From NCBI GenBank assembly GCA_011772645.1, contig WVZE01000036.1:1-46725 (forward strand): DNA of 46,725 nt. The letters are read 5' to 3'. Shown piece after piece: positions 6,221 to 40,270 of the stretch (within the stretch, counting starts at the first letter, position 1; each line of letters starts with the position of its first letter). The DNA is from Candidatus Aenigmatarchaeota archaeon. GTDB lineage: Archaea > Aenigmatarchaeota > Aenigmatarchaeia > QMZP01 > QMZT01. Under the pieces are notes generated by a model that was given only the letters and a program-made list of their open reading frames with translations, made no database searches and was not told where the DNA came from. The translations under genes and the position numbers were made by a program.

Positions 6221-6332
6221 GGCCGCGGTAGTGTAGTGGTTAGCACAGTAGCCTGTGGAGCTGCTAGCCCGAGTTCAAATGGCCACCTTCGAAAAGTCAA
6301 CGGAAAACGGTCTGAAACTCTCGGCCGCGGCC
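6221..6332 (+). tRNA. tRNA-His (anticodon GTG at 6255-6257) with encoded G-1 and a putative ~39-nt intron in the T-arm (about 6281-6319)
   Basis: Hand fold: G-1 plus GCCGCGG / CCGCGGC plus C73 acceptor; D-stem GTGT/GCAC; anticodon stem GTAGC/GCTGC with loop CTGTGGA; T-stem CCGAG (6269-6273) and loop TTCAAAT. The complementary CTCGG lies only at 6320-6324, after a 39-nt insertion. Confidence 0.6.
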
Positions 6333-6334
6333 CT

Positions 6335-7819
6335 TTATTTCTCCCCGGGCCTCATGAACGGAAAAAGAAGAACGTCGCGGATAGAGGGGGAATCCGTGAG
6401 TATCATTACGAGACGATCGACTCCTAATCCTATGCCCGAGGTGGGGGGCATTCCATACTCCAGAGCGCGGATGAAATCCATATCCATCCTCTGCGCTTCC
6501 TTGTCCCCTCGCTTGAGGTCCTTCTCTGCCTTCTCCCAGTACTTTCGCAATTCTTCAGGGTCGTTTCCCTCTGAATAGGAATTCACGATCTCCCAGGTGT
6601 TGATGAAGGTTTCGAAACGCTCTGCCAGCCTGGGATCATCCTTATTTCTTTTGGCGAGTCCGGAAACGTCCGCGGGGAAGTCGTAGATGTGGATGGGCTG
6701 GATCAGGTGTTCCTCCACCTTCTCCTCGAATATCTGCATCACTATCTCCCCCCAGCTCATTGATTTCTCAGCTTCCACGCCAAGCTGTTTGGCGATTTTG
6801 TATGCCTTTTCCCTGTCGGTTTTCGTGAGGTCTTTTTTCGTATACCTCTTTATCGCGGCGAGCATGCTCATTCTCTTCCACGGAGTCCTGAATTCCAGAA
6901 CCTTCCCCTGGTAGACAACCTTGGTTTTCCCGTGAACCTTTCTGACAACGTGCTCGATCATTTTTTCCGTGACCTCCATGCTCTCCCTGTAATCAGCGTA
7001 AGCGCACATCGTCTCCATTAAAAGGAACTCCGGATTGTGGAGCCTGTCGATTCCCTCGTTCCGGAAGTCCGTGGAGAATTCGAAAACCCTCTCGTATCCG
7101 CCCACTATCAGGCGCTTCAGATACATCTCGTTCGCTATCCTCATGTAGACCCTCATGTCCAGGGCATGGAGTTTCGATTCGAAAGGTCTCGCTGACGCTC
7201 CTCCGTATACCGGCTGGAGGATGGGGGTTTCGACCTCAACGAAGTTTCTTTCCTTCAGGAACCCGCGAATCGCTTCGATTGTCTTCGCGCGTTTATCGAA
7301 AGTCTGCCTTACCTCCGGGTTCATAATGAGGTCTACGTATCTTTGGCGGTAGCGGAGTTCCTTGTCCTTCAGGCCGAACCACTCCTTGGGGAGGGGCTGG
7401 ATGGATTTCGTCAGGAGTTCGAAATCCTTTACCCATACACTTAACTCGCCCCGTTTCGTTTTGAAAACAAAGCCCTTCGCTCCTATTATGTCTCCCGTGT
7501 TGAGCATGTTCTCGAAGAATCCGAACTTCCTGCTTCCGATTGTTTTCATCTCGAGGAAGAGCTGCAACCTCCCGGAGGAATCCTGGAGGTCCGAGAAGAT
7601 CACGCCCCCGTGCTTCCTTATCGAGCGTATCCGACCGGCTACGGAGACCCTGAAATTCCTTCTCCTTTCCTCTTTCTTGATCTTTCCTGACTTCTCTGCT
7701 ATCTCCCCTATCAGGTGGGTTTTTTCGAACTTCCTCTTGTAGGGATCTTCCCCTGCCTTCAGGAGTTCAGAGAGTTTCGCTTTCCTCTCTTCGATTTCCG
7801 AATGCGCCTTCCCTTTCAT
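6335..7819 (-). CDS. lysS: Lysyl-tRNA synthetase, class II
   Basis: N-terminal OB-fold-like region. Class II core has FRNEGIDRLHNPEF (motif 2 region) and GIGLGVDRLVMILT (motif 3 region). Start ATG at 7819 makes an ATGA overlap with the stop of the upstream PLD-like gene; the track alternative is 7831. Confidence 0.9.
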   Translation of the reverse strand: MKGKAHSEIEERKAKLSELLKAGEDPYKRKFEKTHLIGEIAEKSGKIKKEERRRNFRVSVAGRIRSIRKHGGVIFSDLQDSSGRLQLFLEMKTIGSRKFGFFENMLNTGDIIGAKGFVFKTKRGELSVWVKDFELLTKSIQPLPKEWFGLKDKELRYRQRYVDLIMNPEVRQTFDKRAKTIEAIRGFLKERNFVEVETPILQPVYGGASARPFESKLHALDMRVYMRIANEMYLKRLIVGGYERVFEFSTDFRNEGIDRLHNPEFLLMETMCAYADYRESMEVTEKMIEHVVRKVHGKTKVVYQGKVLEFRTPWKRMSMLAAIKRYTKKDLTKTDREKAYKIAKQLGVEAEKSMSWGEIVMQIFEEKVEEHLIQPIHIYDFPADVSGLAKRNKDDPRLAERFETFINTWEIVNSYSEGNDPEELRKYWEKAEKDLKRGDKEAQRMDMDFIRALEYGMPPTSGIGLGVDRLVMILTDSPSIRDVLLFPFMRPGEK

Positions 7820-8376
7820 GATTCCATCCATATCCTTTCAAAGTAACCCTCGAACTGCCTCGCAAACGAGGAGGAGTGAATCACCACGTTCGCTTCGTGG
7901 TTCTTCTCGATTGAATGGTAGCTCCAGTTCGTGGAGCCCAATATAACTATTTTGGAATCGATTATTATAAGTTTCGAGTGTGTCGTAACCTCCCCGGAAT
8001 CGAACTTTATGTCAATCCCGCTCTCCTTCAGAATCCGAACGACTGGCTTTTCGGTCAGATACTCATCCGTTATTATCCTGACTTCGACCCCCCTGGCAGC
8101 GGCGTTCTCGAGATCGGAGAGTAGGGAGTTCACAAGGCTTTCTGGGTAATCAGGGTAGTATTTTATGTCGAACATCACCATGTGGATCGAACTTCTCGCT
8201 TCGGACAGGAGGGAATGAATCCCCTCGAAGTAGTCCCTGTCAGCGAGAAGCAGGACCTGGTTTTCACCGATATCAACAGGCCGGTTCGAAAGGGAGTAGG
8301 TGATGAACATTCCGAAAAATAATCCTATGATGAACATCAAAACGATAACAGGGAATCTTTTCCTGGCCCTCAGCAT
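7816..8376 (-). CDS. Phospholipase D-like (single HKD motif) protein with N-terminal TM anchor
   Basis: HSKLIIIDSKIVILGSTNWS matches HxK(x4)D(x6)GSxN. An N-terminal hydrophobic helix (VIVLMFIIGLFFGMFITY) is present. Confidence 0.75.
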   Translation of the reverse strand: MLRARKRFPVIVLMFIIGLFFGMFITYSLSNRPVDIGENQVLLLADRDYFEGIHSLLSEARSSIHMVMFDIKYYPDYPESLVNSLLSDLENAAARGVEVRIITDEYLTEKPVVRILKESGIDIKFDSGEVTTHSKLIIIDSKIVILGSTNWSYHSIEKNHEANVVIHSSSFARQFEGYFERIWMES

Positions 8377-8478
8377 AAAAATAATTTAAATCGGGTTATT
8401 AAAATAATTACGAACCCCACATAAAGAATAAAAGAGAGGAAAGAGAATTAATTAATATAAGTCAATAATGAGGGTTGC

Positions 8479-11400
8479 ATGAAGAGGGATGTTCTTGGTT
8501 TCGGGATAATGCTAATCTTATTCCTACTTTTATTCCTCTCCATACCCTCCATAACGGCCTTAACCAGTACCAACGGGGCCTTCACAGTTACGCCTGATTT
8601 CATATACATCAACTGGACCAACGGGACCATAAATCTCACCTCGAACTCGAACAACCTTACGGTGGTTATAGACAATTCAAGCACGCAGATATATTCAAAC
8701 TATTCCCAGTCCGGCAGGTACCTTATCGGGAGTTACAAGAACCTCAATGACAACACCTGGAACCTCTGTTTCAACTCAAGCCCGCTTGCCAACCAGACCA
8801 TTAAATTCAAGGTCCAGAACGAGACAGGTTCCCACACCACCACTAGCAAGACCCTTGATGAAACGAACACCACCTTCTTTTATCTAACTCCCTACATGCT
8901 CTGCCCTCCGGGGAAATACTACGGTTATTTCTATGTTGAGAACGAGACCAATGCAACGGAAAACGTCAAGGTAAACGTGTCCTTCCAGATCCCGATAGAT
9001 GAAGAGAACACCTTCAACATCACGAAAAACTCCGGCTTCTTCAACGGGTCGATGATTTTGAATCATGGTTATTACCATTCCTATTATTTCAACACCAGCC
9101 CCACGGAAAACCTCACGGGTCTAACATTGAGGCTGGGCCCTTCCCAATCGGATGATATCGATGTCTTCCTTTACGACAGCTCCGGGAACTTCCTTTCTAA
9201 ATCCATAAACCGCTCTTCCTCCATTGAAGAATTCGTTTACGACGTTCCCGGAACGCCTGAGATGTACGAGCTCAGGATTTACGGCAACGTTTCCGCGAAT
9301 TATAACGGTTTACTTTTGTTTTCCACTATCAACACAACCAACGCGACCGGGTCTGAGATAAGCTCGATAAGTTTCGGCGAGCTGGACGCGAACGAGACCT
9401 CCCCGGACCAGGTATTTGTTCTCAAGAACGAGGATGATAAGGTTCTCACCAGCGTTCTGGAGAAGAAGAGAATTTATCATGTTGACAGTTGGCTGAACCA
9501 GGGCAGCAACGGGACGTTCAGACTTCTCGTCCCCTCCTTCGCAGAGAGAGTTAAAATCATACTGGAATGGAAGAACGAGACCGGGACGGATGCTACCAAC
9601 TGGACTCTGTTCCTCAGGGACGTGAACGGGGTGTTGAGGGGGACTTCCAACTCAAAACACCTTAACGCGAAAACAATAACGGATTCCTCTGTTCTGGAGG
9701 AGTACATAGAGTACACCGGATCGATCTCGGAGAGCAACGACGGGTTCTGGAACATAACCGTCAAAAAGAACCAAAGCGGATCTCTGGACAGCTACAACCT
9801 CACGGCATACATCTACGTTCCCGACATCTGGATAAAAACCAACTACACGACCACGAACTTCAGCTCTTCATACAGCAGGCCCGTGAACATTAATATCACG
9901 ATACCCGAAACTAGCGCTCTCAACGGGAGTTACGAAGGATTCATTGAGTACTACCAGGCCTCCGGGTGGATAGAGAGGCTTCCAATATCTTTCAACGTGA
10001 GGACAGGGATGCTGATTGTGAACGAGGAGCTGAGCCTGACCAGCGACAGCATAACGCACAACACGGGATTCAACACGATATCCTCCCCGCTCTCGATTAA
10101 GATCCCCTACAACAACACGGGAGGTTATCCGCTTTACATAAACGTTGAGAACACGACCAACAACATACTCTACCAGATGGGGAACGGTTCGAACTATGTT
10201 GACGTTGTTCTTTCCGACTTCCCTGTAAACCCGGTAAACCCGGGGACGAGCGGGTTCCTGAACGTCTCCGTTAAGATTGACACGTCAGAAAGCCATAACT
10301 ATGCGGGTCTTTACAGGGGTTTCGTCCTGTTCAACACCACCAATTCCACCAATGTTACGAGACAGTCGTCCCTCTTCAAGAAATTCAACATCACGATGTA
10401 CGTAAACCTCACTAATTTGCTCAACATCACCGTGACCAACATAAACCCCTCCCTCGTTCATCCGCCCACATCCGACAAAAACGTTACTTTCACTGTCCAG
10501 GTCAAGCTGATAAACGGGACGATAATTTCCAACACGAACATGATGGACTATACAAACTTCACCCAGATAAGGATGACAGAGACCAACGTCACCACCTACG
10601 AAAGAACGCTTTCCAACATAGTTGCGGGAGGAACAGGAGGAACCGACTGTTCAGCAGGGAGTTGTAACATCAACGGAACCGTTCCCGCCAACTCGGCGGG
10701 AGGTAAATACAACGTTCATGTTACCGCCAGGTGGAACACAAAAATGCTGGGAGGAACGGGTGAGGTTAATCTGACAGGAACGGGCGTTACCGATGATTTC
10801 AAGGTAAACGACACCGGGGTGAAGCTGACCGCGGTCTCCAACAAGGACTACGGAGAGGTGAATGAAGGCAGAACTAACCTTTATTTCAACATGACCGTCA
10901 AGAACTACGGACCGCTGGCGATGACCTCATCATCCAAATTAAGAGTCTACTTCCATGAAGGTTCATGCTTTGGTGCGCTCACCACGGATGTAAAGGACAG
11001 CAGTCATTCCTACACCCGCACGAAGAACACGACCGGAGTGTATGTGGATTTCGAGATGTCCGCATATGACGCGATAGGTCGCTGGATAAGGTTCGAGATA
11101 GATGTCGCCAACATTTCCGAAACCAACAAGAGCTGCTCGATGGTGATATCCTCCGCGAACAAAAAGTCTTTTGGAGCGATCAGCGGGATACTCCTGAAGA
11201 TCGTGGAGGTCGCGCCCAGTGAGGACGGCAACGGCCAGCAGGCGGCTGCTCCCACCGGATGTACCTCTGACAGCGGCTGTTCTGACACGCAATACTGCTC
11301 CAACGGGCAGTGCTTGGCTGTCTCCTGTCCCGATGGTTTTGTCAGCAACCACAAGTGCAATCCGTACCAGAAAAAGCTTTCCATCACTGATTATGAGTCA

Positions 11401-12333: not shown

Positions 12334-12401
12334 AGGGATCATTTCTGTAAATAATTCAGTATTTATATGTGATTTTCCTAATCTAAATTAGGAGTGTTCG
12401 T

Positions 12402-13247: not shown

Positions 13248-13255
13248 GTGAGGAG

Positions 13256-13504: not shown

Positions 13505-13525
13505 ATTCGGATTTCCGGAGCGGAT

Positions 13526-18485: not shown

Positions 18486-18920
18486 ATGGCAAATCAAGGT
18501 ATTACTTCTGGTAAAAAATTTTGCAGTTATTACATTCCGGACGAGGATGGTTGTAAGAAAGGAAATTACAACTGTCCCATGGCATGCGGTGAGAGCGACG
18601 AACTAATATTGGTTAGACAGGCACTCTGTCCAAGTTTTGATTACAGCGGGGGCAAAGGAGAAGATCTCATAGGTTTCTTAAGGCTTTTAGGAACAATGGA
18701 TGAAAACGTCCGGAGTCTGGCAGGGGAAAAGCTTGTAAGACTTACGTATGATAGTTTCGATGGATTTGACCACGGGAAACTAAAGAAAACGGCTGAGAGG
18801 TACGCAAATCTCCTGGAAACCAGTTTAAGAAATCGTATTAGGAAGAAAAACAAATTCCTAATTAGTGCTAGGAGAGCCTTAGTGCTTTTATATGGTTCGA
18901 GTATTAATGATCACATTTAG
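18486..18920 (+). CDS. Hypothetical protein with Cys-rich N-terminus
   Basis: 144-aa ORF in a somewhat AT-richer stretch. Contains CSYYIPDEDGCKKGNYNCPMACG; no family recognised. Confidence 0.4.
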   Translation: MANQGITSGKKFCSYYIPDEDGCKKGNYNCPMACGESDELILVRQALCPSFDYSGGKGEDLIGFLRLLGTMDENVRSLAGEKLVRLTYDSFDGFDHGKLKKTAERYANLLETSLRNRIRKKNKFLISARRALVLLYGSSINDHI

Positions 18921-18942: not shown

Positions 18943-19497
18943 TTAACCGCGGCTATCGAATTCTTTAAATATCTTCTCGAAAACCTTCTTTATCTCCGGG
19001 GTTTTTATGTTTAGTTTTCCGTCCTCGAAGAATTCCTCCAGGTCCTCGTGTTTTTCCGAGTATTTCAGCGCCTGCATGCACATCTCGAGCTTGTCGAGAT
19101 CCTTCACGAGCTCCGCTTCCTTTGATTTCCTGTATTCGAAATCCTCCCAGAGATCGTATATCTCTTTCGCTAGATCCTCAGGGAGGAAGGAAACGATTTT
19201 TTTCAGTCCCTGTTCTTCAAGCTCCCTCTTTTTCGAGTTAGGAACGACCTGATCCTCATCCCTTATCTTATCCGCTATGTCCCCGGAATAGACCTCGCAG
19301 ATGTCATGGATCAGGGCGAGCTTCACGGCTTTGCTGGAATCTAAACCCAGCTTTTTCGAATAAACATAAGCGAGAATCGCGAGCATGAAGGAATGGTCTG
19401 CCACGCTCTCCGGGTCGCGAACGCCCCTCTGAACCCATCCAGTGCGTTTCAGGTCCTTCAGTTCACTTACCTTTTTAGCGAAATCGAGGAGGTTCAT
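18943..19497 (-). CDS. HD-domain hydrolase, YfbR/HDDC2-like 5'-nucleotidase family
   Basis: RTGW...ESVADHSFMLA...LIHDICEVYSGDI...DKLEM matches the YfbR-type HD pattern. Confidence 0.75.
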   Translation of the reverse strand: MNLLDFAKKVSELKDLKRTGWVQRGVRDPESVADHSFMLAILAYVYSKKLGLDSSKAVKLALIHDICEVYSGDIADKIRDEDQVVPNSKKRELEEQGLKKIVSFLPEDLAKEIYDLWEDFEYRKSKEAELVKDLDKLEMCMQALKYSEKHEDLEEFFEDGKLNIKTPEIKKVFEKIFKEFDSRG

Positions 19498-19531: not shown

Positions 19532-20176
19532 ATGAACGAAAATATTGCTACTTTGGTTGGTCTGCATATAGGCGATGGTTCTTTAAGTAAATGGGTAAAT
19601 AAATCAACTGGAAAATTACAGGAAAAATGGACACTCTATCCAGGTGATAACATAAAGTTCGCTACTTCAGTGGTTCACTTCCTAAATAAATTGAATCTGA
19701 ATGCAAAAATTCATCCAAAAGACAAGAAATATTATAGAGTTGATTCATATGATGCAGTTGCCGTTTTAAAAAGATATTTCTTAACAGGAAATAAAACAAA
19801 GACTGTTGATATCCCTAAAGAATTCGTGCAAACACCTCTAATTAACAATGTACTGAAAGGGATTTTTTCCTGTGATGGATGCATAGCTTTCGGGAATAAG
19901 GGGATTTACCTATCGTTTGATACGGTTTCGGAAAGGCTTTCGAACAGTATTATGAAATCTTTGAAATTATTGAAATTAAATGCGTACCTTTACAAATATG
20001 AAGGTTTGAGAAAACTGCCAACGGGTAAAATATCAAAAAAAGAAATGTTTTGCGTAAGAATATGGTCAAAGAGCGATATTAATAAATTTATGAAAGAAAT
20101 AGGTTCAATAAACCCCAAACATCTTAAAAGATACAAAGAATGGCTGCGGGGGTACCCAAGTGGTCAAAGGGGCTAG
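19532..20176 (+). CDS. Free-standing double-motif LAGLIDADG homing-endonuclease-like protein
   Basis: Two LAGLIDADG-type motifs, LVGLHIGDGSL near the N-terminus and LKGIFSCDGCI about 100 aa later. Markedly AT-rich relative to neighbours. Start taken at ATG 19532 because the track start 19442 overlaps the HD gene. The last 31 nt overlap the tRNA-Leu gene. Confidence 0.6.
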   Translation: MNENIATLVGLHIGDGSLSKWVNKSTGKLQEKWTLYPGDNIKFATSVVHFLNKLNLNAKIHPKDKKYYRVDSYDAVAVLKRYFLTGNKTKTVDIPKEFVQTPLINNVLKGIFSCDGCIAFGNKGIYLSFDTVSERLSNSIMKSLKLLKLNAYLYKYEGLRKLPTGKISKKEMFCVRIWSKSDINKFMKEIGSINPKHLKRYKEWLRGYPSGQRG

Positions 20177-20249
20177 ATTGCCATGTGCAAGGCCAAGCTA
20201 AGGACCTAGTAGCTTAGTGCTTTCCTGGGTTCGAATCCCAGCCCCCGCA
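20146..20249 (+). tRNA. Class II tRNA, most likely tRNA-Leu, with a ~20-nt intron in the anticodon loop (about 20181-20200)
   Basis: Hand fold: acceptor GCGGGGG/CCCCCGC plus A73; class II D-arm CCC-AAGTGGTCAAA-GGG; long variable arm (AGC-TTAGT-GCT); T-arm CTGGG-TTCGAAT-CCCAG. The anticodon stem CTAGA/CCTAG encloses 27 nt instead of 7. Joining TTG to AGGA gives loop TTGAGGA (anticodon GAG). Splice points and anticodon are not certain. Confidence 0.65.
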
Positions 20250-21651: not shown

Positions 21652-21775
21652 AGCCCCGTAGTCTAGCGGCCAAGGATGCCGGGCCTTGGAGCACAGCTTT
21701 AAGGAGTTGAGTGGGGATTATTTCCACAATGACAGAGGAAACCCGGTGACGGCGGTTCGAATCCGCCCGGGGCTA
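21652..21775 (+). tRNA. tRNA-Gln-like (anticodon TTG at 21686-21688) with a 51-nt intron at the canonical 37/38 position (about 21690-21740)
   Basis: Hand fold: A1:U72 acceptor AGCCCCG/CGGGGCT plus A73; D-arm GTCT-AGCGGCCAA-GGAT; anticodon stem CCGGG/CCCGG; T-arm GGCGG-TTCGAAT-CCGCC. The layout aligns well with archaeal tRNA-Gln as I recall it. The loop reads CCTTGGA, so C instead of the near-universal U at position 33, and the isotype is therefore tentative. Confidence 0.6.
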
Positions 21776-21776
21776 T
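21761..21776 (+). repeat. attL-like direct repeat (within tRNA 3' end)
   Basis: Perfect 16-mer ATCCGCCCGGGGCTAT, with GGTT also shared 7 nt upstream of both copies. Confidence 0.8.
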
Positions 21777-21833: not shown

Positions 21834-23012
21834 ATGAAACCCCAAATAAACCTTGAATATAGCAAAATGGTAGAAAAACGAATTAAAACTTTTGAGGAAA
21901 AGGACAAAGTAAGACCCAGAAACAAAGAGCTTGTTCTGAAATTTGTCGAGAACGCAATAAGAGAAGGTATAGGAGAAAGGAGGATTGTGAAGTATTTTGG
22001 CGTGTTTAAAAACATTGACAACTTGCTTGGAAAGGACTTTGACAAAGCAATAAGGAAAGATATAGAGTTACTTGTAGGTAAAATAGCGACTTCCAAATAT
22101 GAAGCATGGACAAAATGGGCTTACAGAGTGATGATAAAGAAATTCTATAAGTGGCTCGAAGGTAGGAATGAAGAATATCCAGAAAAGGTAAAATGGATTA
22201 AATCCAAGCAAGGACCATGTAAAATAACTGTTCCCGAAGACCTTATAACAAGGGAGGATCTCAAAAAGCTAATAGAGACCTGCACAAGCGACAGGGACAG
22301 GTGTATTGTCGCCTTGCTTTATGAAAGTGGCTTTCGTATTGGCGAATTGCTAGGACTCAAAATAAAAGATATTGACTTTAACAGCGACCCTGTAAAAATC
22401 CTAGTAAATGCGGAGAAGACCAAAACCAAAAGGAGAGTCCCTATCGTTGAATCCGTTGGTTACATAGCAAGGTGGATTCAATCACACCCGGACAAAAAAC
22501 CACAATCCAGATTATTCGTAAATTGCGGGAAATACGCAGGAAACTCAATGAGTGCTCATTGTGTACGTAAGGTTTTGAAAAGACTCAAGGAAAATCTCAA
22601 CAACGGAAAGAAGTTAAATCCTCACTTATTCAGGCATTCCAGAGCGACGGAATTGGCAAACCATCTAACAGAAGCACAGATGAATAAGTTCTTCGGCTGG
22701 GCAAACGGCTCGGACATGCCGTCTGTATATGTTCATCTTTCCGGGAGAGACATAGACAACGCTATACTGAATTTGTATGGGAAAGGGAACAGAGAGGAAA
22801 AACTTCAGGGAAAATTGACACCTAGACTTTGCCCTAGATGTAAAGAAAATAATCTAGAGACAGATACGCTTTGTTTAAACTGCGGATTGCCCCTTGACGA
22901 AAAAACAAGAATGGAATTTATGAACAAAGCAAGGCATATGCAACCCATATACGAGAAAATCGAGGAGCTAATAGAGGCAAAAATCAAGGAAATTCTAAGT
23001 CTCAAGACCTAA
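21834..23012 (+). CDS. Tyrosine recombinase / phage-type integrase with C-terminal zinc-ribbon extension
   Basis: GFRIGELLGLKIKDID (Arg box), HLFRHSRATELA (HxxR) and SVYVHLSG (catalytic Tyr region), followed by CPRCKENNLETDTLCLNCG after the catalytic domain. Confidence 0.85.
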   Translation: MKPQINLEYSKMVEKRIKTFEEKDKVRPRNKELVLKFVENAIREGIGERRIVKYFGVFKNIDNLLGKDFDKAIRKDIELLVGKIATSKYEAWTKWAYRVMIKKFYKWLEGRNEEYPEKVKWIKSKQGPCKITVPEDLITREDLKKLIETCTSDRDRCIVALLYESGFRIGELLGLKIKDIDFNSDPVKILVNAEKTKTKRRVPIVESVGYIARWIQSHPDKKPQSRLFVNCGKYAGNSMSAHCVRKVLKRLKENLNNGKKLNPHLFRHSRATELANHLTEAQMNKFFGWANGSDMPSVYVHLSGRDIDNAILNLYGKGNREEKLQGKLTPRLCPRCKENNLETDTLCLNCGLPLDEKTRMEFMNKARHMQPIYEKIEELIEAKIKEILSLKT

Positions 23013-23717: not shown

Positions 23718-23922
23718 AAAGCTAGGTAGTTATTTCACATAATTCCCTGTATTGACAATTAACCTATTAATGTATCTTATCTAGGACTTCACTTGATTAG
23801 TATAGAAATAACTTTACAACGAGCCGATAGATAACGGAAATTGAAAAACCACGAGAGAAAAAATACCCAAAATTCATCAAAATCTGAGGAGTTTCAGACA
23901 CTAAAAATAGGGTGTGCACACC

Positions 23923-24129
23923 ATGACAAGCAAGATAACTTTAAGCTTTGGTGTAAGGATGGATAAAAATCTAGTCGAAAAGCTAGACAAAATAGTGAAA
24001 GAATCTGAATATTTGAACACGAACAGGTCGGAAGTGATAGAATCAATCCTGAAGGCGTTCTTTAAATCGAAATTCAATCATCTGGAAAAGAGCAGAGAAT
24101 TGGTGATAATAGGCAGGAAGGAGGTTTAA
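23923..24129 (+). CDS. Ribbon-helix-helix (CopG/Arc/MetJ-like) protein
   Basis: KITLSFGVRMDKNLVEKLDKIVKES...NRSEVIESILKAFF fits the beta-strand plus two-helix RHH pattern. Confidence 0.6.
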   Translation: MTSKITLSFGVRMDKNLVEKLDKIVKESEYLNTNRSEVIESILKAFFKSKFNHLEKSRELVIIGRKEV

Positions 24130-24955: not shown

Positions 24956-25717
24956 ATGAGAAAAGAAAGCAAAGAACTTACTTTCGCAATCAAGGCTGCG
25001 AAAGAAGCGGGAAAAATAACCTTAGATCAATTTGAAAAATTCAAGGATGTTAGTTACAAACCCGGCGAAGAGATCGTTACAGACGTGGATGTAAAGGCTG
25101 AAAGAAAGATCAAGGAAATTATAAAGAAACATTTCCCTAAACATAACATTCTGGCTGAGGAGGAGGGCGAAGATTTCGTTTCCAGTTCAGATTATCTTTG
25201 GATTATTGATCCTGTTGACGGAACAGTGAATTATAGTAGAGGGATAAAACTTTATGGGATTTCAATCGCCTTGGCAAAAAACAATGAAGTAGTTCTCGGG
25301 GTGGTCTACAATCCCATCTTTGATGAGCTATTTACAACTGAAAGAGGTAAGGGCGCATTCCTTAACGGTAAAAAGATAAAAGTATCTTCAGAAAATGAAC
25401 TGTTCAAAACAGTTATTTATTCAACTGAATTGTTCAGGACTAAAGAGATTATAAAAAATCTTTTCGATAGAGTTAGAAATTTGAGAATCACAAGTTCCTC
25501 TGCTTACGAGACATGTCTGGTTGCGTGTGGAAAGGTGGATGCGTATATCAAGGTTACGAATGTTCCTTGGGGCTTTGCCGCTGCCAATTTAATAGTTGAA
25601 GAGGCAGGAGGGAGAGTCACGAATTTTGATGGCTCTAAGTGGAACATTCACTCTAAAAATATTCTTTCTTCGAATGGAATTTTACACGAAAAAATCTTAT
25701 CACTTTTGGAAAAATAA
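24956..25717 (+). CDS. suhB: Inositol monophosphatase family protein (IMPase/FBPase-type)
   Basis: ILAEEEG, WIIDPVDGTVNY and the distal WGFAAANLIVEEAGG blocks are IMPase family signatures. Confidence 0.85.
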   Translation: MRKESKELTFAIKAAKEAGKITLDQFEKFKDVSYKPGEEIVTDVDVKAERKIKEIIKKHFPKHNILAEEEGEDFVSSSDYLWIIDPVDGTVNYSRGIKLYGISIALAKNNEVVLGVVYNPIFDELFTTERGKGAFLNGKKIKVSSENELFKTVIYSTELFRTKEIIKNLFDRVRNLRITSSSAYETCLVACGKVDAYIKVTNVPWGFAAANLIVEEAGGRVTNFDGSKWNIHSKNILSSNGILHEKILSLLEK

Positions 25718-25786: not shown

Positions 25787-25802
25787 ATCCGCCCGGGGCT
25801 AT
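25787..25802 (+). repeat. attR-like direct repeat (tRNA 3' end remnant)
   Basis: Second perfect copy of ATCCGCCCGGGGCTAT. It overlaps the stop codon of the minus-strand gene 25799-26200. Confidence 0.8.
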
Positions 25803-28104: not shown

Positions 28105-28105
28105 A

Positions 28106-33372: not shown

Positions 33373-33381
33373 ACTAATTAT

Positions 33382-34428
33382 TTACCCGTGTCTTAATATA
33401 TACTTTAGATCGGTCAGCAGTTCTGTCTTGCTTGGATCCTTTCTGTGGAGTATCCCGAGGTAGATGCTGACGAAATTAAGCATGTACATTACGGAAAGTA
33501 TCCTCGAAAGGTCTGAATGGTAGATGCTCCGTATCTCGATCACGCTCCCCCCGGAGTTCCTGACCGCGTCCTCTGTGAACTCTATCCTCCTTTGCATTTC
33601 CCTGTCCTCCTCCCTGTCCCTTATGAAGATGACGGCAAGCATCTTCGAGAGGTTTCTGGGTGATTCCCATCCAACTATCGCGTTGTGGCTCAGTTCGGGG
33701 AAGTTATCCGAGAAGGAGTGGATTTTCGAGTTCTCATTGAACTGCGCCTTCGCACGCAAAGCGACCGCCTCGAACTTCCCGAACCCGTAAATCAGGGGGA
33801 TCTTTCTCCTGAGTTTGATCGCGATCCTCTTCGCCGGGTTGTCCTTTGTCCTGACATCCGGGGTGAGCTCGTCCCTTGTTTCCTTCAGGTTCCTGACCAC
33901 CCTCCCCAGGTCTGATCCTTCCCTGATGAACCTGATCTTTCTCAGAACAACCAGCAGGGGGAAAAAGAGATAGGCTATGGCGTATCTTGGCTGCATGCCC
34001 CCGGGGATTTTTATGAAGGGGGTTTTCTCTTCCCTGAATTCCTTTTCCAGCTTTCCTCCAGAGGTAATTCCTATCATGTTTAATTTCCTCTTCACTGCCT
34101 GCCTGAAAAGGCTCAAGGTTTCCTCTGTGTTTCCTGAATAGCTTGAAATTAAAACGAGCGAATCCTTATCCACATATCCAGGAAGGTCGTGACCCCTGAA
34201 AACCCTTATGTCGTGATCCCTCAGCCACGTCCGAAGGATATCGCCAGCTATCGCTGATCCTCCCATGCCGCAGATGCACACGGATTTGGGTTTTTTGAGC
34301 TTCAGGGTTTTTGAGAATTCCTTCCCTATCCCTATCGCTTCCTCGCACTGTTCAGGGAAATTCCTGATGGTTCCAAGTACGTTTCTCCTGTCAACTTCCA
34401 TCATCCCTACTATATCGTCCAGAATCAT
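33382..34428 (-). CDS. Bifunctional phosphoglucose/phosphomannose isomerase (SIS domain)
   Basis: CICGMGGSAIAGDI and ISSYSGNTEET SIS motifs. Length and architecture are typical of archaeal PGI/PMI. Confidence 0.75.
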   Translation of the reverse strand: MILDDIVGMMEVDRRNVLGTIRNFPEQCEEAIGIGKEFSKTLKLKKPKSVCICGMGGSAIAGDILRTWLRDHDIRVFRGHDLPGYVDKDSLVLISSYSGNTEETLSLFRQAVKRKLNMIGITSGGKLEKEFREEKTPFIKIPGGMQPRYAIAYLFFPLLVVLRKIRFIREGSDLGRVVRNLKETRDELTPDVRTKDNPAKRIAIKLRRKIPLIYGFGKFEAVALRAKAQFNENSKIHSFSDNFPELSHNAIVGWESPRNLSKMLAVIFIRDREEDREMQRRIEFTEDAVRNSGGSVIEIRSIYHSDLSRILSVMYMLNFVSIYLGILHRKDPSKTELLTDLKYILRHG

Positions 34429-35759
34429 CTCTTTATCTCCCCGAAGTTGAGATAGGGTTTCAGGACTTTCGGGATTGAAACAGAACCGTCCTTCCTCTGG
34501 TAGTTTTCAAGGATCGCCACAATCGTTCGCCCTGTTGCGATCGCCGTGGCGTTCAGGGTGTGCAGAACGAATTTCTCCCTTTTCTTGTTCACGAACTTTA
34601 CGTTCAGTTTCCTCGGCTGGTAATCCGTGCAATTCGAGCAGGAAACCACCTCCCTGAACCTACCCTGTGCAGGCATCCAGGTCTCGAGATCATATTTTAT
34701 CGAGGCGTTGTCGTTCATCTCCCCGGAACTTATGGACATGATTCTGTAGGGGAGCGAAAGTTTCTGGTGGAGGGTTTCGGTGTTCTTGATAAGTTTTTCA
34801 AACCATTCATCCGAATCCTCCGGCCTGCAGAAAACGAACTGCTCGACCTTGTCGAACTGGTGGACGCGGAAGATTCCCTTCGTGTCCTTTCCGTGTGATC
34901 CCGCCTCCCTCCGGAAGTTAGTGGAGAAACCGGCGTAGAGTTTCGGGAGGTCGCTTTCCTTGAAGGTTTCGTTCATGTGGTAGGCAGCGAGTGTTTGCTC
35001 GGCGGTTGCTATAAGAAACAGGTCTTCCTTGTCTATCTTATACAATTGGTTCTCGAAGTCGGAAAGTTCGGAAGCCCTCGCCATGGGATCCTTCCTGAGC
35101 ATGAAGGGCGTCCAGATAGGGGTGAATCCCTCCTTCACAAGGAAGTCCATCGCGAACCTTATGAGGGCGAGGTTCAGGGAAACGAGCTCGTTTTTCAGGT
35201 AAAAGAAGCGAGCACCTGAAAGCTTCGAGGCCTTCTCGGTGTCAGCGAGGTCGAGATTCCCCAGCAGGTCAACGTGACTCTTGGGAAGGAAATCAATCTC
35301 CTTGAATTTCAATCCCTTCGATTCTTTCTTGAAGTTCCCGATGTGATCCTTGAAAACCAGGGGCTCGCCCCAGGCGCGAACGAACGAATTCTCCTCCTCT
35401 GTCTTACCGACAGGGACGTTCTTGTTAAGGATGTTCCCGATTTTGTACCGGTAGAGATCACGCCTGGAAAGGTATTCCTCCGCCTTTTTATCGTTTCTTG
35501 CTATCTCGTTGTTTATCCTTTTCATCTCCAGGATTTTCTTTCTCGTGGGCTTTTTCGATTTCTTAAGCTCTGCGATTTCTTTCGAGACCACGTTTCTCTT
35601 GTGCTTGAGCTTCTCGGCCCTCTGCAGGGAAGATCTCCACTTCTTATCGAACTCCACAACCATCTCCACGTTTTTGACGTCCTTGAACCTCTTCTTTTCC
35701 GATTCCCGGACCAAGTCCGGTTTCTCCCTGAAAACTCGCATGTCAAGCATTTCGAACAC
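34425..35759 (-). CDS. serS: Seryl-tRNA synthetase (bacterial/common type)
   Basis: N-terminal coiled-coil arm, class II core with FRVHQFDKVEQF and GRTIVAILENYQ blocks. The true start may be the 4th codon (MLDMRVFREKP, ATG 35750). 4-nt overlap with the downstream PGI/PMI start. Confidence 0.9.
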   Translation of the reverse strand: MFEMLDMRVFREKPDLVRESEKKRFKDVKNVEMVVEFDKKWRSSLQRAEKLKHKRNVVSKEIAELKKSKKPTRKKILEMKRINNEIARNDKKAEEYLSRRDLYRYKIGNILNKNVPVGKTEEENSFVRAWGEPLVFKDHIGNFKKESKGLKFKEIDFLPKSHVDLLGNLDLADTEKASKLSGARFFYLKNELVSLNLALIRFAMDFLVKEGFTPIWTPFMLRKDPMARASELSDFENQLYKIDKEDLFLIATAEQTLAAYHMNETFKESDLPKLYAGFSTNFRREAGSHGKDTKGIFRVHQFDKVEQFVFCRPEDSDEWFEKLIKNTETLHQKLSLPYRIMSISSGEMNDNASIKYDLETWMPAQGRFREVVSCSNCTDYQPRKLNVKFVNKKREKFVLHTLNATAIATGRTIVAILENYQRKDGSVSIPKVLKPYLNFGEIKR

Positions 35760-35801
35760 CTATAATAATTTCTTAATGCCCAGTTTAATAAACTTTAGAA
35801 A

Positions 35802-36347
35802 TCATTCCTCTTCTTCGTAATTGACGAGCGTGAAGACCTCGTACTTCGTTAGCCTGTCCCTTCCCTTCAGAAAACCCAGCTCTATGAGTATCGCTATGCC
35901 CACGATGTTCCCTCCGAGCCTCTCAACCAGTTTCGTCGCGGCCTCCATTGTCCCGCCCGTGGCGAGCAGGTCGTCCACTATCAGGACGTTCTCCCCCTCC
36001 TTTATCGCGTCCCTGTGTATCTCGAACGCGTCCTTCGAATACTCTGTTTCGTATTCCTCCCTTATGGTCTCATGAGGGAGCTTCCCCGGCTTCCGCAGAG
36101 GGACGAAGCCCGCATGGAGTTTGTGAGCGATCACCGAGCCGAAGATGAATCCCCGGCTTTCAGCGGAAACAACCTTGTCTATCCTCTCGTCCTTGAAATG
36201 CTCCACCATCTCGCTTACCGCGTAACGGAAGCAGCGGTTATCGTTCAGAAGGGTCGTTATGTCCTTGAAGATCACGCCGTGCTTGGGGAAATGGGGTATG
36301 TCACGTATACTTGATTTAAGATCGATTTTTTCTTTCCTCTCTTCCAT
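35802..36347 (-). CDS. apt: Adenine phosphoribosyltransferase
   Basis: VLIVDDLLATGGT PRPP-binding motif and FKDITTLL near the N-terminus; ~180 aa. Confidence 0.85.
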   Translation of the reverse strand: MEERKEKIDLKSSIRDIPHFPKHGVIFKDITTLLNDNRCFRYAVSEMVEHFKDERIDKVVSAESRGFIFGSVIAHKLHAGFVPLRKPGKLPHETIREEYETEYSKDAFEIHRDAIKEGENVLIVDDLLATGGTMEAATKLVERLGGNIVGIAILIELGFLKGRDRLTKYEVFTLVNYEEEE

Positions 36348-36384
36348 AACAAATTTTTATTGTGCAGGGTTAAAAATATTTTTT

Positions 36385-37194
36385 ATGAGGATATATCTGG
36401 GCCCTGCGGGAAGTCCAGCACGCAGCACATTGGAAGGGGTGGCGAAGGTGAAGGAATTGGGACTCCACTGCATGGAGGTCCAGTTCACCCACGGGATAAA
36501 GATGGGGCTCGATCTCGCGAAAGAGATCGGGAAGGAGAGGGAGAGGGTAGGGATCGAGCTGAGCGTGCACGCCCCTTATTATATCAATCTCGCCAGCAAG
36601 GACCCGAAAAAGATTAAGGAGAGCGAACAGAGAATTCTGGATTCCTGCGAACGCGCGCATCACATGGGAGCAAAAAACGTGGTCTTCCATCCAGCTTACT
36701 TCGGAGGAAAGGACAGGGAAAGCATATACAAGATCGCGAAAGAACACATACTGGATATGATGGGGACGGTCGAAAATAGGAAGTGGGACGTTTTGATCTC
36801 TCCCGAGACCACGGGGAAGCATTCCGCCCTCGGGAGCCTGGAGGAAACGATAAGGCTTTCGAAGGAGACCGGATGTTCCCTGTGCGTGGATTTCGCTCAC
36901 CTGTTCGCAAGGAATTACGGAAGGATGGATTTTTCTGGAATTTTCGAAAAGCTCAGAACCCTTCGAAAGAAACATCTTCATTCCCACTTTTCAGGCATAG
37001 AGTACACGGCAAAGGGGGAGAAAAACCATTTGAACATGGACCACTCCCCGGATTTCAGGAAGTTCGCGAAGGTCCTGTTCAAGCAGAAATGGCTGGATTC
37101 AATAACTATTATATCTGAAAGTCCAATAACATGGAAGGACTCTCTCAAAATGAAGGATTCGCTGGCGAAGCTGGGATACAGGTGGAAGGAATGA
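36385..37194 (+). CDS. nfo: Endonuclease IV-like AP endonuclease (xylose isomerase-like TIM barrel)
   Basis: HAPYYINL, VVFHPAY, SPETTG, CVDFAHLF and HSHFS blocks match the Nfo metal-ligand pattern. Start at ATG 36385 (MRIYLGPAG) rather than the track start 36259, which overlaps apt. Confidence 0.7.
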   Translation: MRIYLGPAGSPARSTLEGVAKVKELGLHCMEVQFTHGIKMGLDLAKEIGKERERVGIELSVHAPYYINLASKDPKKIKESEQRILDSCERAHHMGAKNVVFHPAYFGGKDRESIYKIAKEHILDMMGTVENRKWDVLISPETTGKHSALGSLEETIRLSKETGCSLCVDFAHLFARNYGRMDFSGIFEKLRTLRKKHLHSHFSGIEYTAKGEKNHLNMDHSPDFRKFAKVLFKQKWLDSITIISESPITWKDSLKMKDSLAKLGYRWKE

Positions 37195-37589
37195 TCGAGA
37201 TATACACGGACGGGGCGTCCCGCGGAAACCCGGGACCCGGAGCTATCGCTTTCATAATATTCAAGGGCGAGAAAATCATAAGGAAGCACAGTCATTTTAT
37301 AGGAAAGACAACGAACAACGTCGCTGAATATCGCGCCCTCATATCTGCGCTGGAGAGGGCGAGGAAACTTTCGAAGGAAGTCCGCTTGTTCTCGGACAGC
37401 AAGTTGTTGGTCAAACAGATGAAGGGCGAGTACAAAGTGAAAAAACCCCACATAAAGGAACTCTTCGAGAAGGCGAAAACCCTCGAGGGGGGGTTCGAAA
37501 AGATCGAGTATGTCCACGTGAACAGAACTAACCCTGGAATCAAAATGGTGGATAAAATGGTGAACCAGGTTCTTGACAGAATTGTTTAA
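37191..37589 (+). CDS. rnhA: Ribonuclease HI (type 1 RNase H)
   Basis: MIEIYTDGASRGNPGPGA...NNVAEYRALI...SDSKLLVKQM is the RNase HI DEDD pattern. ATGA overlap with the nfo stop. Confidence 0.85.
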   Translation: MIEIYTDGASRGNPGPGAIAFIIFKGEKIIRKHSHFIGKTTNNVAEYRALISALERARKLSKEVRLFSDSKLLVKQMKGEYKVKKPHIKELFEKAKTLEGGFEKIEYVHVNRTNPGIKMVDKMVNQVLDRIV

Positions 37590-38272
37590 TTTTTATCAAC
37601 CAGCTTAGCCTTCTCTATCAGGTAGATTCCCCTCACCCCGTTCCACTCCTTTCTCGCCTCAAGAATTTCGATTCTTTTGTTGAATATCGGGCCGTCGAGG
37701 ACGAAGGTCTCGGCTTCGCCTCCCTCGAATCCCTTGTGGATTCCGTATTTCCTGCTTAGCTTTGCCAGATCGTTGAGAGCGGAGTGATCGAGCCTTCTCC
37801 CCAACCATTCCTCGTTCAACCCTTCCGCAGATACGGAGGTTACTATTATCTCGAAACCGGAAACTATGAGGTCCTGGAGATAATCACGCATGCTCCTCTG
37901 CCAGTGAGGGGCGAAAGATTCCAGACCGAGCTTCCTTGCGAGATCATCGATCCTCGCCTTCTGGTAACGGGATTCCAGGGCGCCGGAGACAACTCCCTGG
38001 ATTTCGGGTTTGATCGATTTCAAAACCTCCTCGAGATCCTCGAGTTCGCTTTCCTTCTCTCCCTTGGTTTTCCTGGTTATGAGTTTTATCCCCATAGCCT
38101 TCGCCTGGAGTTTGGTCCACCTGACGTTGGGGTAGTGGAACATGTACGACTCGTCGGTTTGGGGGATTATCGTGACCAAATACTTGACGTTCATTCCCCT
38201 GTTCATCGCCTTGTATATAGCGAACGTCGAGTCCTTCGCTCCTGAAAAGAGAACAGCCACATTCATTAACAA
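37586..38272 (-). CDS. Diphthine-ammonia ligase-like PP-loop ATP pyrophosphatase (MJ0570/Dph6 family)
   Basis: VAVLFSGAKDS (SGGKDS-type PP-loop) at the N-terminus and a GEAETFVLDGP block near the C-terminus. Confidence 0.7.
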   Translation of the reverse strand: MLMNVAVLFSGAKDSTFAIYKAMNRGMNVKYLVTIIPQTDESYMFHYPNVRWTKLQAKAMGIKLITRKTKGEKESELEDLEEVLKSIKPEIQGVVSGALESRYQKARIDDLARKLGLESFAPHWQRSMRDYLQDLIVSGFEIIVTSVSAEGLNEEWLGRRLDHSALNDLAKLSRKYGIHKGFEGGEAETFVLDGPIFNKRIEILEARKEWNGVRGIYLIEKAKLVDKN

Positions 38273-38312
38273 TTAATTGAAACGTTCCTCTTAAAAAGCT
38301 TGTGTGCAGAAA

Positions 38313-39086
38313 TCATTGGAGCAGGTTTTTCAATTCCCCGAGAAATGTTCCGTCCAGGAGATAAACCTTCGCCGAACCGAGCTTCTCAGATCTGACCAGC
38401 GTGCCTATCCCTGTATGATAGGTTTCGTGCGCCCTCTCGATGTCCGAGACCGGACGGTTCATCGAGATCCCCCCGGACAAACGGTTGAATCTAGGGAAGA
38501 TGATCAGTTCGGGGAGTTTCTTGGGTAGGGATTTGTATTTCTTTCCGAGCTTCTCCCTGTCGAGTTTCGCTCGAACCCATACGGGCTCGAAAAACCTGTA
38601 ACCCAGGGAATCGATGAATTCGATCTGGGGGTGTTCGTGTCCTACGAAAACGTAATCGGATTTCAGGAATTCCTGGGAAGGCCAGGTGTGGCCGTGAAAA
38701 AAGAAGCAACCGTCCGTTTTGAACCCCCTGCTTGAATGCAGACGGACGTTGTTCGGGATGAAATCCTTCAGGCCGGAATCGTGGTTTCCCGGAAGGATTT
38801 CCACCTTTATTTTGTCCCCGAAGTGTTCCAGAAATTCCGGGATCTCCCTGAGTTCCTGCCTGCTAACACCCGGGACCTTGTGCTTAACGTCCCCGAGTAT
38901 CACCAGACGTTCGGATCTGGTTTGTTTTACCAGCTCGTCCAGATCCCTTTTCATCTGTTCTGTGTTTGAGGGGATGCGAATCCCTGACTTGTAGTATTCG
39001 AACTCGATCCCTATGTGAAGGTCCGCGATCACGAGGGTTCTGCCCATTACCAGCGCGGGTCTCCCTGTCACGAATTTCTGCTCCAT
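38313..39086 (-). CDS. Calcineurin-like metallophosphoesterase
   Basis: The ordered motifs of the family are present: ADLHIG, GDVKH, GNHD, HGH and GHEH. Confidence 0.8.
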   Translation of the reverse strand: MEQKFVTGRPALVMGRTLVIADLHIGIEFEYYKSGIRIPSNTEQMKRDLDELVKQTRSERLVILGDVKHKVPGVSRQELREIPEFLEHFGDKIKVEILPGNHDSGLKDFIPNNVRLHSSRGFKTDGCFFFHGHTWPSQEFLKSDYVFVGHEHPQIEFIDSLGYRFFEPVWVRAKLDREKLGKKYKSLPKKLPELIIFPRFNRLSGGISMNRPVSDIERAHETYHTGIGTLVRSEKLGSAKVYLLDGTFLGELKNLLQ

Positions 39087-39135
39087 AGTGATTTATTCGG
39101 AGTTTATTTTTAAAATCTAACCCTAATTTTAAACC

Positions 39136-40080
39136 ATGGCCACCAAGGACGAGATCAGGGACGAGATCGAGCTCGCGCGCAAGCACTTGGAGGAGGACGT
39201 GCATAAAAGGGAACTGGAGGCGGAGGAGAGGCTGGACGAGCTGCTTTCCAAGAAAAAGATGGAGTTCTGCTCCCGCTGCGGGAGGAAGATCGATTCCAGG
39301 ATGGACTGGGGCGGGAAGTGTCTGCATGAAGGGTGTGAAGAACTCGTATGTCATGAGTGCTGGGCTTCCGAGGAGAGGAGGTTCTGCAGGAAGCACCTTA
39401 AGGAATACGTTAGGAAGGAAGGGAAGGAAGAACCGGAAGTGAAGGAGAGCAGGATGAAGAGGCTCACGCTCAGCTACATGGATTTCCTGAGGGACAGGTT
39501 TGAAAAATTCGAAAGCATGGACTGGACCCCGGAGGAGTTCATAAAGAAACCGGTATTCCAGATAAAGAACAGGAACTACGGGAAATTCAGGATCGTGGTC
39601 TACAGAAAGGGCTGGATAAGGAAGAGGCCGAAGATCGAATTCCTGGTCAGGCCGATCGAGGAGAATATCGAAGGGGTGATAAACGAATTCTTGGAAAGGG
39701 AGAAAAAAGTTCATATCATAATTGTTCTGACCGGAGATACGCCCTCCATCGATATTAAAACAAAGGATTTCGTTGAAAAGTTCAGCGACAAGAGGATTTC
39801 CCTGTTCCTGGGGGATGTTGAAATGAACCAGGTTTACTTCAATTTAAAGGAGAAGGTAACCGAGAAATACTCTTCCTGGGTTGATCCTTCCAAGGTTCCG
39901 ATGAAATTCAGGGACATGCTGGCGGAGATCGCGGAAAGCATGTCCGGAAGGAAGATCGTTTCTGCAAAGAGATTCTCAACGGAATTCGGACTGGAGAATG
40001 TAACCGGCCTGAAAATCCTGAGTGAATGCGATTTTCTGGAGGGCATAAGCGGGACGGATTGCTTCATTCTGAGGGAATGA
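39136..40080 (+). CDS. Hypothetical protein: N-terminal coiled coil, Cys-rich zinc-ribbon-like module, unknown C-terminal domain
   Basis: CSRCGRK...CLHEGCEELVCHECW...FCRKH follows an acidic coiled coil. The C-terminal ~200 aa are unrecognised. Confidence 0.5.
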   Translation: MATKDEIRDEIELARKHLEEDVHKRELEAEERLDELLSKKKMEFCSRCGRKIDSRMDWGGKCLHEGCEELVCHECWASEERRFCRKHLKEYVRKEGKEEPEVKESRMKRLTLSYMDFLRDRFEKFESMDWTPEEFIKKPVFQIKNRNYGKFRIVVYRKGWIRKRPKIEFLVRPIEENIEGVINEFLEREKKVHIIIVLTGDTPSIDIKTKDFVEKFSDKRISLFLGDVEMNQVYFNLKEKVTEKYSSWVDPSKVPMKFRDMLAEIAESMSGRKIVSAKRFSTEFGLENVTGLKILSECDFLEGISGTDCFILRE

Positions 40081-40131
40081 AATTTATAAATTAAGATTTC
40101 TTTTATATGGTATAGATCGAAGCGTACATGC

Positions 40132-40270
40132 GGTCCCGTAGCTCAGCCTGGTACCTTCGCTTCTCGCGGAGCGAGTGGGCACTTAGAGCGCACGACTGAT
40201 AACTAGCGAAAGAAGTCTATCGACTTCGTCGGATATCGTGAGGTCGCGAGTTCAAATCTCGCCGGGACCA
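40132..40270 (+). tRNA. tRNA-Ile (anticodon GAT) with two introns: about 31 nt in the D-loop (~40154-40184) and 33 nt at or near 37/38 (~40201-40233)
   Basis: Hand fold: acceptor GGTCCCG/CGGGACC plus A73. D-stem GCTC...GAGC is separated by AGCCTGGTA plus an extra ~31 nt containing the hairpin CTCGC-GGA-GCGAG. Anticodon stem CACGA/TCGTG encloses CTGATAA plus 33 extra nt. T-arm GCGAG-TTCAAAT-CTCGC. Confidence 0.7.

Follow-up and report, generated by a model that had tools for sequence, protein, structure and literature searches.

What tRNA genes does an archaeal contig hold when a standard finder sees none in it? The stretch considered here (positions 1 to 46,725 of contig WVZE01000036.1; 47% G+C), called the window in what follows, gives no tRNA call with ARAGORN at default settings. 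The original prediction, made from the letters of the sequence, was that every tRNA gene of the window is interrupted, with five introns in four genes, and the analysis bears this out: removal of five segments brings the ARAGORN calls from none to four, for tRNA-His, tRNA-Leu, tRNA-Gln and tRNA-Ile, and no other tRNA was found. The four loci are very probably functional tRNA genes that belong to an archaeon of the Aenigmatarchaeota and are interrupted by five archaeal introns of the protein-spliced bulge-helix-bulge (BHB) type.

Detection of the four interrupted genes

In the unmodified window, the Rfam tRNA model reaches its gathering score only at the Leu and Gln genes, and the two matches skip 23 and 57 nt, respectively, in the anticodon region. 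A search at E<=10 adds sub-threshold, partial matches at 6227-6284 (His) and 40177-40270 (the 3′ two thirds of Ile). When the five intron segments listed in Table 1 are excised, ARAGORN in its default mode reports His(GTG), Leu(AAG), Gln(TTG) and Ile(GAT), all as regular cloverleaves. The identity elements are then in place: G-1:C73 in tRNA-His, whose acceptor helix has 8 bp, a long variable arm together with A73 in tRNA-Leu, and A1-U72 with A73 in tRNA-Gln. The last of these had been described beforehand as Gln-like; the assignment stands, and the reserve does not, the gene being a tRNA-Gln(UUG) with the normal archaeal A1-U72 and A73 and with C33 as its sole oddity.

The intron mode of ARAGORN proposes Pro(TGG), Pro(TGG) and Glu(CTC), which were rejected as incompatible both with the identity elements and with the exons defined by the orthologues. 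No fifth tRNA was found in the window by Rfam at E<=10, by a permissive scan for an acceptor stem plus T-arm that allowed T-loop insertions, or by inspection of the intergenic gaps; additional low-stringency ARAGORN candidates were discarded since they sit within open reading frames (ORFs), and the other matches of the permissive scan since they have no convincing G+C-rich stems. All exons are collinear within 104-139 nt, unlike those of split or permuted tRNA genes.

Table 1. Features of the window and homologous ORFs in related loci
Feature	Coordinates	Strand	Description
tRNA-His(GUG) gene	6221..6332	+	partial Rfam match; ARAGORN on spliced form; orthologues L033-L036 beside LysRS
His exons	exon 1 6221-6279; exon 2 6319-6332		G-1 to A59; U60 to C73
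His intron	6280..6318	+	39 nt; T-loop, 59/60; strict hBHBh'
LAGLIDADG endonuclease-like ORF	19532..20176	+	free-standing, double-motif; 214 aa; Pfam LAGLIDADG_3 (PF14528), 2.5e-10
tRNA-Leu(AAG) gene	20146..20249	+	Rfam 44.7 bits; ARAGORN on spliced form; long variable arm, A73
Leu exons	exon 1 20146-20176; exon 2 20197-20249
Leu intron	20177..20196	+	20 nt; anticodon stem, 30/31
tRNA-Gln(UUG) gene	21652..21775	+	Rfam 47.5 bits; ARAGORN on spliced form; A1-U72, A73
Gln exons	exon 1 21652-21689; exon 2 21741-21775
Gln intron	21690..21740	+	51 nt; canonical 37/38
tRNA-Ile(GAU) gene	40132..40270	+	sub-threshold Rfam match; ARAGORN on spliced form; orthologues upstream of FKBP
Ile exons	40132-40151; 40183-40201; 40235-40270
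Ile intron 1	40152..40182	+	31 nt; D-loop, after G19 (19/20)
Ile intron 2	40202..40234	+	33 nt; canonical 37/38
LAGLIDADG homologue ORFs	L001 2200-2841; L039 ~1745-2426; L041 154-873; L037 2001-2603; L040 114-767

Lineage of the host and orthologous loci

The closest relatives of the RpoD, class II LysRS and FKBP proteins of the window all belong to metagenome-assembled genomes (MAGs) labelled Aenigmatarchaeota or Aenigmarchaeota; the host is thus a member of Candidatus Aenigmatarchaeota (DPANN), an archaeal lineage. Syntenic loci of related Aenigmatarchaeota, here numbered L001, L010, L027 and so on, were gathered from genome and metagenome collections by protein-anchored searches with the neighbouring rpoD, FKBP and LysRS genes. 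The rpoD-linked set was used for tRNA-Leu and tRNA-Gln, the FKBP-linked set (L025, L027, L029, L031) for tRNA-Ile and the LysRS-linked set for tRNA-His, and among these relatives the tRNA genes hold syntenic places beside the three protein genes. RpoD is 83% identical to that of the window in L010, 68% in L001 and 65% in L039.

All 24 tRNA genes examined in the Aenigmatarchaeota-related loci are interrupted, with 37 introns in total. Exons are conserved, with 90-97% identity between the tRNAs of the window and of L001, whereas introns are variable or absent in orthologues, and most aligned junctions of the relatives' tRNAs form 3-4 of the 4 central-helix pairs of the splicing motif. A literature search found no paper on tRNA introns in Aenigmatarchaeota.

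Structure and position of the predicted splice junctions

The archaeal BHB comprises an outer helix, a central helix of 4 bp and two bulges of 3 nt, and cleavage occurs after the second nucleotide of each bulge. This motif and its relaxed forms have been described in a review (PMC4090602). At all five junctions of the window the 4-bp central helix is fully paired, the bulges have 3 nt and the register is the one that gives the product defined by the orthologues; the motif is strict in His and Leu, with relaxed flanks in Gln, in the D-loop intron of Ile and in its 37/38 intron. The scan was applied only at boundaries set by other evidence, its stand-alone use having been rejected for its high background, and at a boundary fixed beforehand four of four central pairs would arise by chance with a frequency of about 0.375^4 = 2% per junction. 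In minimum free energy (MFE) folds, four of the five introns show the central helix together with one bulge or both, the exception being Gln.

Three of the five introns (59/60, 30/31 and 19/20) lie outside the anticodon loop, where only two had been predicted. Positions 20/21, 30/31 and 59/60 are on record as non-canonical archaeal sites (PMC4090602), and the DPANN host identified through RpoD, LysRS and FKBP agrees with the original remark that dense introns at such positions are known from some small-genome archaea.

The splicing pathway would start with the folding of each precursor's exon-intron junctions into a BHB. The tRNA splicing endonuclease EndA would then cleave both bulges behind their second nucleotide, and the exons would be sealed by a ligase of the RtcB type to give tRNA-His(GUG), tRNA-Leu(AAG), tRNA-Gln(UUG) and tRNA-Ile(GAU). 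Cleavage and ligation, as well as the acceptance of the 59/60, 19/20 and 30/31 sites by EndA, are inferred.

tRNA-His

In the tRNA-His precursor, UUCA (6274-77) pairs with UGAA (6313-16) to form the central helix, with the bulges AA↓U and AC↓U (arrows mark the predicted splice sites); the T-stem CCGAG/CUCGG (5 bp) serves as the outer helix and GGCC/GGUC (4 bp) as the inner one. In all four orthologues the T-loop is interrupted at this site, by introns of 57-209 nt and unrelated sequence, and each of these genes has a further intron, in the D-loop or at 37/38.

The tRNA-His gene and its AT-rich upstream/promoter region (6176-6334) are inverted relative to the LysRS gene and a 726-aa gene in comparison with L033-L036, an orientation backed by two independent Logan assemblies. 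The acceptor ends of the tRNA form the palindrome GGCCGCGGCC.

tRNA-Leu

The central helix of the tRNA-Leu precursor is GGCU (20171-74)/GGCC (20191-94), with the bulges AG↓A and AA↓G and the inner helix UUG(C)/(G)CAA, and the MFE fold of the precursor shows the central helix and a bulge. The position of the intron is decided by the orthologue in L010, which has no intron at 30/31, where it reads ...GGGGCUAGGCUAAGGACCUAG..., with the arm GGGG-CUAGG-CUAAGGA-CCUAG, and has a 38-nt T-loop intron instead. Because this anticodon arm is uninterrupted, the intron of the window is uniquely placed at 30/31 of the anticodon stem, which leaves AAG as the anticodon; the earlier idea that the insertion might lie inside the anticodon falls with it. 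An intron at 30/31 is found also in the tRNA-Leu genes of L001, L039 and L041 (20, 31 and 22 nt), where it differs in sequence, and the central helix is kept by covariation, being GGCU/GGCC in the window, GGCU/GGCU in L039 and GGCA/UGCC in L041. The stem of the variable arm covaries as well (AGC/GCU in the window vs AGG/CCU in L001).

Other placements were considered and ruled out by L010: an intron at 37/38 with the anticodon GCC, which would give GCC in the window vs GCU in L001, an intron at 34/35 with the anticodon GAG, and an intron at 31/32.

A separate observation concerns the first anticodon base. The anticodon loop CUAAGGA (20198-20204) carries A34, and AAG is kept in five genomes (window, L001, L010, L039 and L041); archaea have been reported to have no A34 tRNA genes (PMC11066159). 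Since CUC outnumbers CUU in the ORFs of the window (303 vs 201 codons) while this tRNA-Leu has the anticodon AAG, formation of I34 or a separate GAG tRNA would be needed.

tRNA-Gln

In tRNA-Gln the central helix is CCUU (21684-87)/GAGG (21735-38), the bulges are GG↓A and AA↓A, and the anticodon stem provides the outer helix (outer 7). The orthologues in L001, L005, L010 and L039 all share the border CCUUGG↓...↓A, with additional introns in the D-loop in L005 and in the T-loop in L010. Between the window and L001 the intron is 45% identical, the exons 90-94%.

Several features of this gene were observed alongside. C33 replaces the near-universal U33 in the loop CCUUGGA (21684-21689 plus 21741), and it does so in all five orthologues, that of the window included. 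The introns of the same five genomes (window, L001 4347-4397, L005, L010 and L039) have a common layout, namely 6-9 nt complementary to loop nucleotides 32-37, 2 nt, xUGA, a hairpin of 14-20 nt, AUGAnnA and (A)GAGGAA, and MFE folding of the window precursor yields a duplex between guide and loop. Judged by its sequence, this layout resembles a box D'/C' K-loop guide, for which the N+5 rule would point at U34. Clouet d'Orval et al. 2001 are said to have described a box C/D guide in the euryarchaeal pre-tRNA-Trp intron that directs 2'-O-methylation of nucleotides 34 and 39. The Gln intron is similar in combining a complement of the anticodon loop with a box D'/C'-like layout; it differs in residing in a tRNA-Gln, in having one recognisable box pair and no clear terminal C/D boxes, and in having no Rfam match.

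The 3′ end of the tRNA-Gln gene is also where an element of about 4 kb has integrated, between two copies of a 16-nt direct repeat (ATCCGCCCGGGGCTAT, at 21761-21776 and 25787-25802); L010 represents the empty site. The element has a G+C content of 35-40% vs 47% for the window, and it carries a tyrosine integrase (21834-23012), a ribbon-helix-helix ORF (23914-24129) and a gene of the inositol-monophosphatase family (24956-25717).

tRNA-Ile

The first of the two introns of tRNA-Ile interrupts the D-loop, which in the mature tRNA reads AGCCUGGUUA. Its central helix is GCCU (40146-49)/GGGC (40177-80), with all four pairs formed and the bulges GG↓U and AC↓U; placement at 20/20a is equally possible from sequence alone. 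L025, L029 and L031 also have the D-loop intron, between identical exon borders (AGCCUGG↓...↓UUAGAGC), and tRNA-Ile of L027 has neither this intron (its D-loop is AGCUUGGUUA) nor the one at 37/38.

For the second intron the central helix is CUGA (40196-99)/UCGG (40229-32), again with four of four pairs, and the bulges are UA↓A and AU↓A; the anticodon stem CACGA/UCGUG (5 bp) forms the outer helix, and the inner helix has 1 bp. The 37/38 introns of L025, L029 and L031 have 47-51 nt and a different sequence, with the shared border CUGAUA↓...↓AUCG, and L029 has a third intron, in the T-loop.

The FKBP-type isomerase ORF that follows has its AUG at 40272, one base past the discriminator of tRNA-Ile (GGGACCAUAUG; 40270-40274), an arrangement kept in L025 and L027; because of this distance, 3′ processing of the tRNA would leave an essentially leaderless FKBP mRNA. 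A hairpin, GAAACCCGCUGGUGGUUUC, is conserved inside the 37/38 introns of L025, L029 and L031 and is absent from the window. In L031 its near-copy GAAACCCGCUGGAGGUUUC lies shortly before the FKBP start and covers a Shine-Dalgarno-like GGAGG, and the version in L029 is more diverged.

Weighing of the alternatives

Some results count against the view that BHB introns split these genes. Loosely defined BHB motifs are frequent by chance, with 5.3 strict motifs per 100 nt of window, and some sites have weak flanking helices, with an outer helix of just 2 bp (GG/CU) in Leu and of 1 bp plus a mismatch at the D-loop junction of Ile. In Gln no inner helix abuts the bulge, and in the MFE fold of the precursor the anticodon loop pairs with the middle of the intron, which out-competes the BHB helix. 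Neither endA nor rtcB was found within the 46.7-kb window by a Pfam search of its about 55 ORFs, and no RNA-seq run containing the window sequence was found, the public runs that contain it being DNA metagenomes only; no spliced junction was seen.

The loci could be thought to be decaying pseudogenes that have accumulated insertions, with functional copies elsewhere, as standard tools miss them and the anticodon loops are odd (A34 in Leu, C33 in Gln). Such decay is very unlikely, given that the exons are 90-100% conserved where RpoD is only 65-83% identical and the introns diverge, that stem substitutions are compensatory, and that A34 and C33 are each conserved in five genomes; moreover, synteny with rpoD, LysRS and FKBP is kept and a BHB junction is found at every insertion. 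That the insertions are retained as expansion segments, which would make the mature tRNAs unusual, deserves equally little credence: in close relatives the same tRNA lacks a particular insertion or is interrupted elsewhere, by insertions of 20-209 nt and unrelated sequence. In addition, a mature tRNA that kept extra segments in its T-loop, D-loop or anticodon stem would lose its tertiary core and its anticodon helix, and the geometry of the junctions is that of an endonuclease substrate.

Since some intron sequences recur in several tRNAs and positions, self-splicing group I/II introns or mobile DNA, such as remnants of miniature inverted-repeat transposable elements or insertion sequences, were also weighed. 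With 20-51 nt the segments are far below the size of a ribozyme core and match no Rfam intron family at E<=10, and they show no terminal inverted repeats or target duplications, their borders being set by RNA structure, so that an origin of either kind is scarcely credible. An artefact or chimera of assembly would be conceivable for a sequence that comes from a metagenome; it is extremely improbable here, because Logan contigs of two separate runs agree with the His locus at every base and interrupted homologues recur across many independent NCBI, JGI, ENA and Logan assemblies, including the closed 846-kb genome CP070809.1. Five BHB introns in four functional genes thus remain by far the best account of the loci.

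Intron turnover and comparison with known systems

Over 42 nt, the D-loop intron of tRNA-Ile in the window matches that of tRNA-His in L033 (3041-3253) at 90% identity, and a 52-nt element nested in the 37/38 intron of tRNA-Gln in L010 (3788-4030) has a 98% identical counterpart in the T-loop intron that L034 has in its tRNA-His (3475-3676). The introns of this clade are evolutionarily mobile: besides gain and loss, there is copying from one tRNA or position to another.

Multiple and non-canonical introns are known from the Thermoproteales Pyrobaculum, Thermofilum and Caldivirga (Marck & Grosjean 2003; Sugahara 2007/2008; Fujishima 2010, via PMC4090602), and intron transposition has been described in this order, with a mechanism called unknown in a 2014 review (PMC4090602). 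The Aenigmatarchaeota resemble them in having BHB introns at 37/38, in the D-loop, at 30/31 and at 59/60, in having more than one intron per gene, and in the near-identical introns of different tRNAs, which imply intron transposition. They differ in belonging to DPANN and not to TACK, and the Thermoproteales endonuclease is an (alpha-beta)2 enzyme with a Crenarchaea-specific loop. Broad-specificity EndA enzymes are known in DPANN, epsilon2 in ARMAN-2 (PMC3239211) and alpha4 with an L3 loop in several lineages (PMC5829648), and DPANN with L3-loop EndA show markedly more tRNA gene disruption and incompletely predicted tRNA sets (PMC5829648). The present lineage shares with these ultrasmall archaea a small genome, many non-canonical or multiple introns and incomplete results of tRNA finders, while lying outside the genomes analysed in those two studies.

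A LAGLIDADG gene adjoining tRNA-Leu

Directly upstream of tRNA-Leu the window holds an ORF for a LAGLIDADG endonuclease-like protein, of which a longer, GTG-started reading begins at 19442. The ORF runs 31 nt into the tRNA gene, where the final three bases of exon 1 serve as its stop codon, TAG (20174-76); outside tRNA-Leu it has none of its own. The two LAGLIDADG helices end in GDG and CDG, the latter invariant in the six homologues, and the AF2 model (pLDDT 89) finds PI-PfuI, PI-SceI, I-AniI, I-OnuI, I-Tsp061I and I-DmoI as its top Foldseek matches, with probability 1.00 for many LAGLIDADG enzymes. The protein thus has the two helices with their acidic residue and the double-domain alpha-beta-beta-alpha-beta-beta-alpha fold of the family. 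It shares fold (Foldseek E 1e-9 to 1e-7) and helices with the intron-encoded I-DmoI and I-Tsp061I and with the intein endonucleases PI-PfuI and PI-SceI; unlike these, its ORF lies outside any intron or intein, upstream of and overlapping the tRNA gene, whose adjoining intron has just 20 nt, and a PDB sequence search with the protein gave no significant match. Scans of viral contigs found no relatives of the protein and none of the D-loop intron family.

Six homologues could be retrieved, all of them directly 5′ of a tRNA-Leu gene; the anticodons of the adjoining tRNAs are AAG (window, L001, L039, L041), GAG (L037) and UAG (L040). The ORF and the 30/31 intron occur together in the window, in L001 with the same arrangement, and in L039 and L041, and L010, the closest relative by RpoD, has neither of them, its HD gene lying 53 nt from the tRNA. 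In L027 a LAGLIDADG ORF of 26% identity (577-1383) lies 20 nt upstream of tRNA-Ile, and this tRNA gene is the only one of the five Ile orthologues to carry a 21-nt intron for which 30/31 is the best BHB register. From the ORF through tRNA-Leu into the spacer, the window and L001 share 83-95% identity, compared with 69-75% for the rpoD and HD genes that flank this tract; the 82-nt spacer after tRNA-Leu is 91% identical to that of L001 and 72% to that of L010, against the RpoD signal. Because the similarity of tract and spacer is incongruent with the RpoD relationships, it suggests that the LAGLIDADG cassette was exchanged more recently than its flanks.

One reading, tentative and on balance doubtful, is that the ORF may encode an active, free-standing homing endonuclease whose target would be the uninterrupted tRNA gene at about 30/31, and to which the 20-nt intron would confer immunity; through double-strand-break repair the two would spread jointly, in a form of collaborative homing. 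Against it weigh the tRNA-Leu introns of L037 and L040, which are at other positions, the LAGLIDADG sample, which is small and phylogenetically non-independent, and the fact that most introns in the clade have no LAGLIDADG neighbour. Zeng et al. 2009 reportedly found that a cyanophage psbA group I intron and F-CphI practise collaborative homing, with the endonuclease acting together with an endonuclease-less intron. Common to both cases are a free-standing gene beside a short intron without an ORF, joint presence and absence, and a tract younger than its flanks. The present case differs in its protein-spliced BHB intron within a tRNA, its LAGLIDADG enzyme and its archaeal host, and the likeness, known here from sequence, is an analogy only.

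Further upstream, between the M50 peptidase and HD genes, lies a 144-aa ORF (18486-18920, +) with no Pfam match and no counterpart in the syntenic L010.

Meaning for Aenigmatarchaeota tRNA biology

With these genes the Aenigmatarchaeota join the archaeal lineages that have dense, multi-site tRNA introns, and the incomplete tRNA sets that standard finders report from such MAGs are explained, as ARAGORN finds none of the four genes and Rfam two of them at threshold. Estimates of genome completeness and codon capacity in DPANN are affected by tRNA genes missed in this way. The splicing endonuclease of the lineage is predicted to cut in the D-loop, the T-loop and the anticodon stem. The loci also provide a comparative set in which introns have been gained, lost and copied among tRNAs over short evolutionary distances, and the LAGLIDADG gene abutting tRNA-Leu offers a testable handle on the mechanism of intron transposition. 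If collaborative homing proved true, it would be the first concrete DNA-level mechanism by which archaeal tRNA introns, at least those of one class, are gained.

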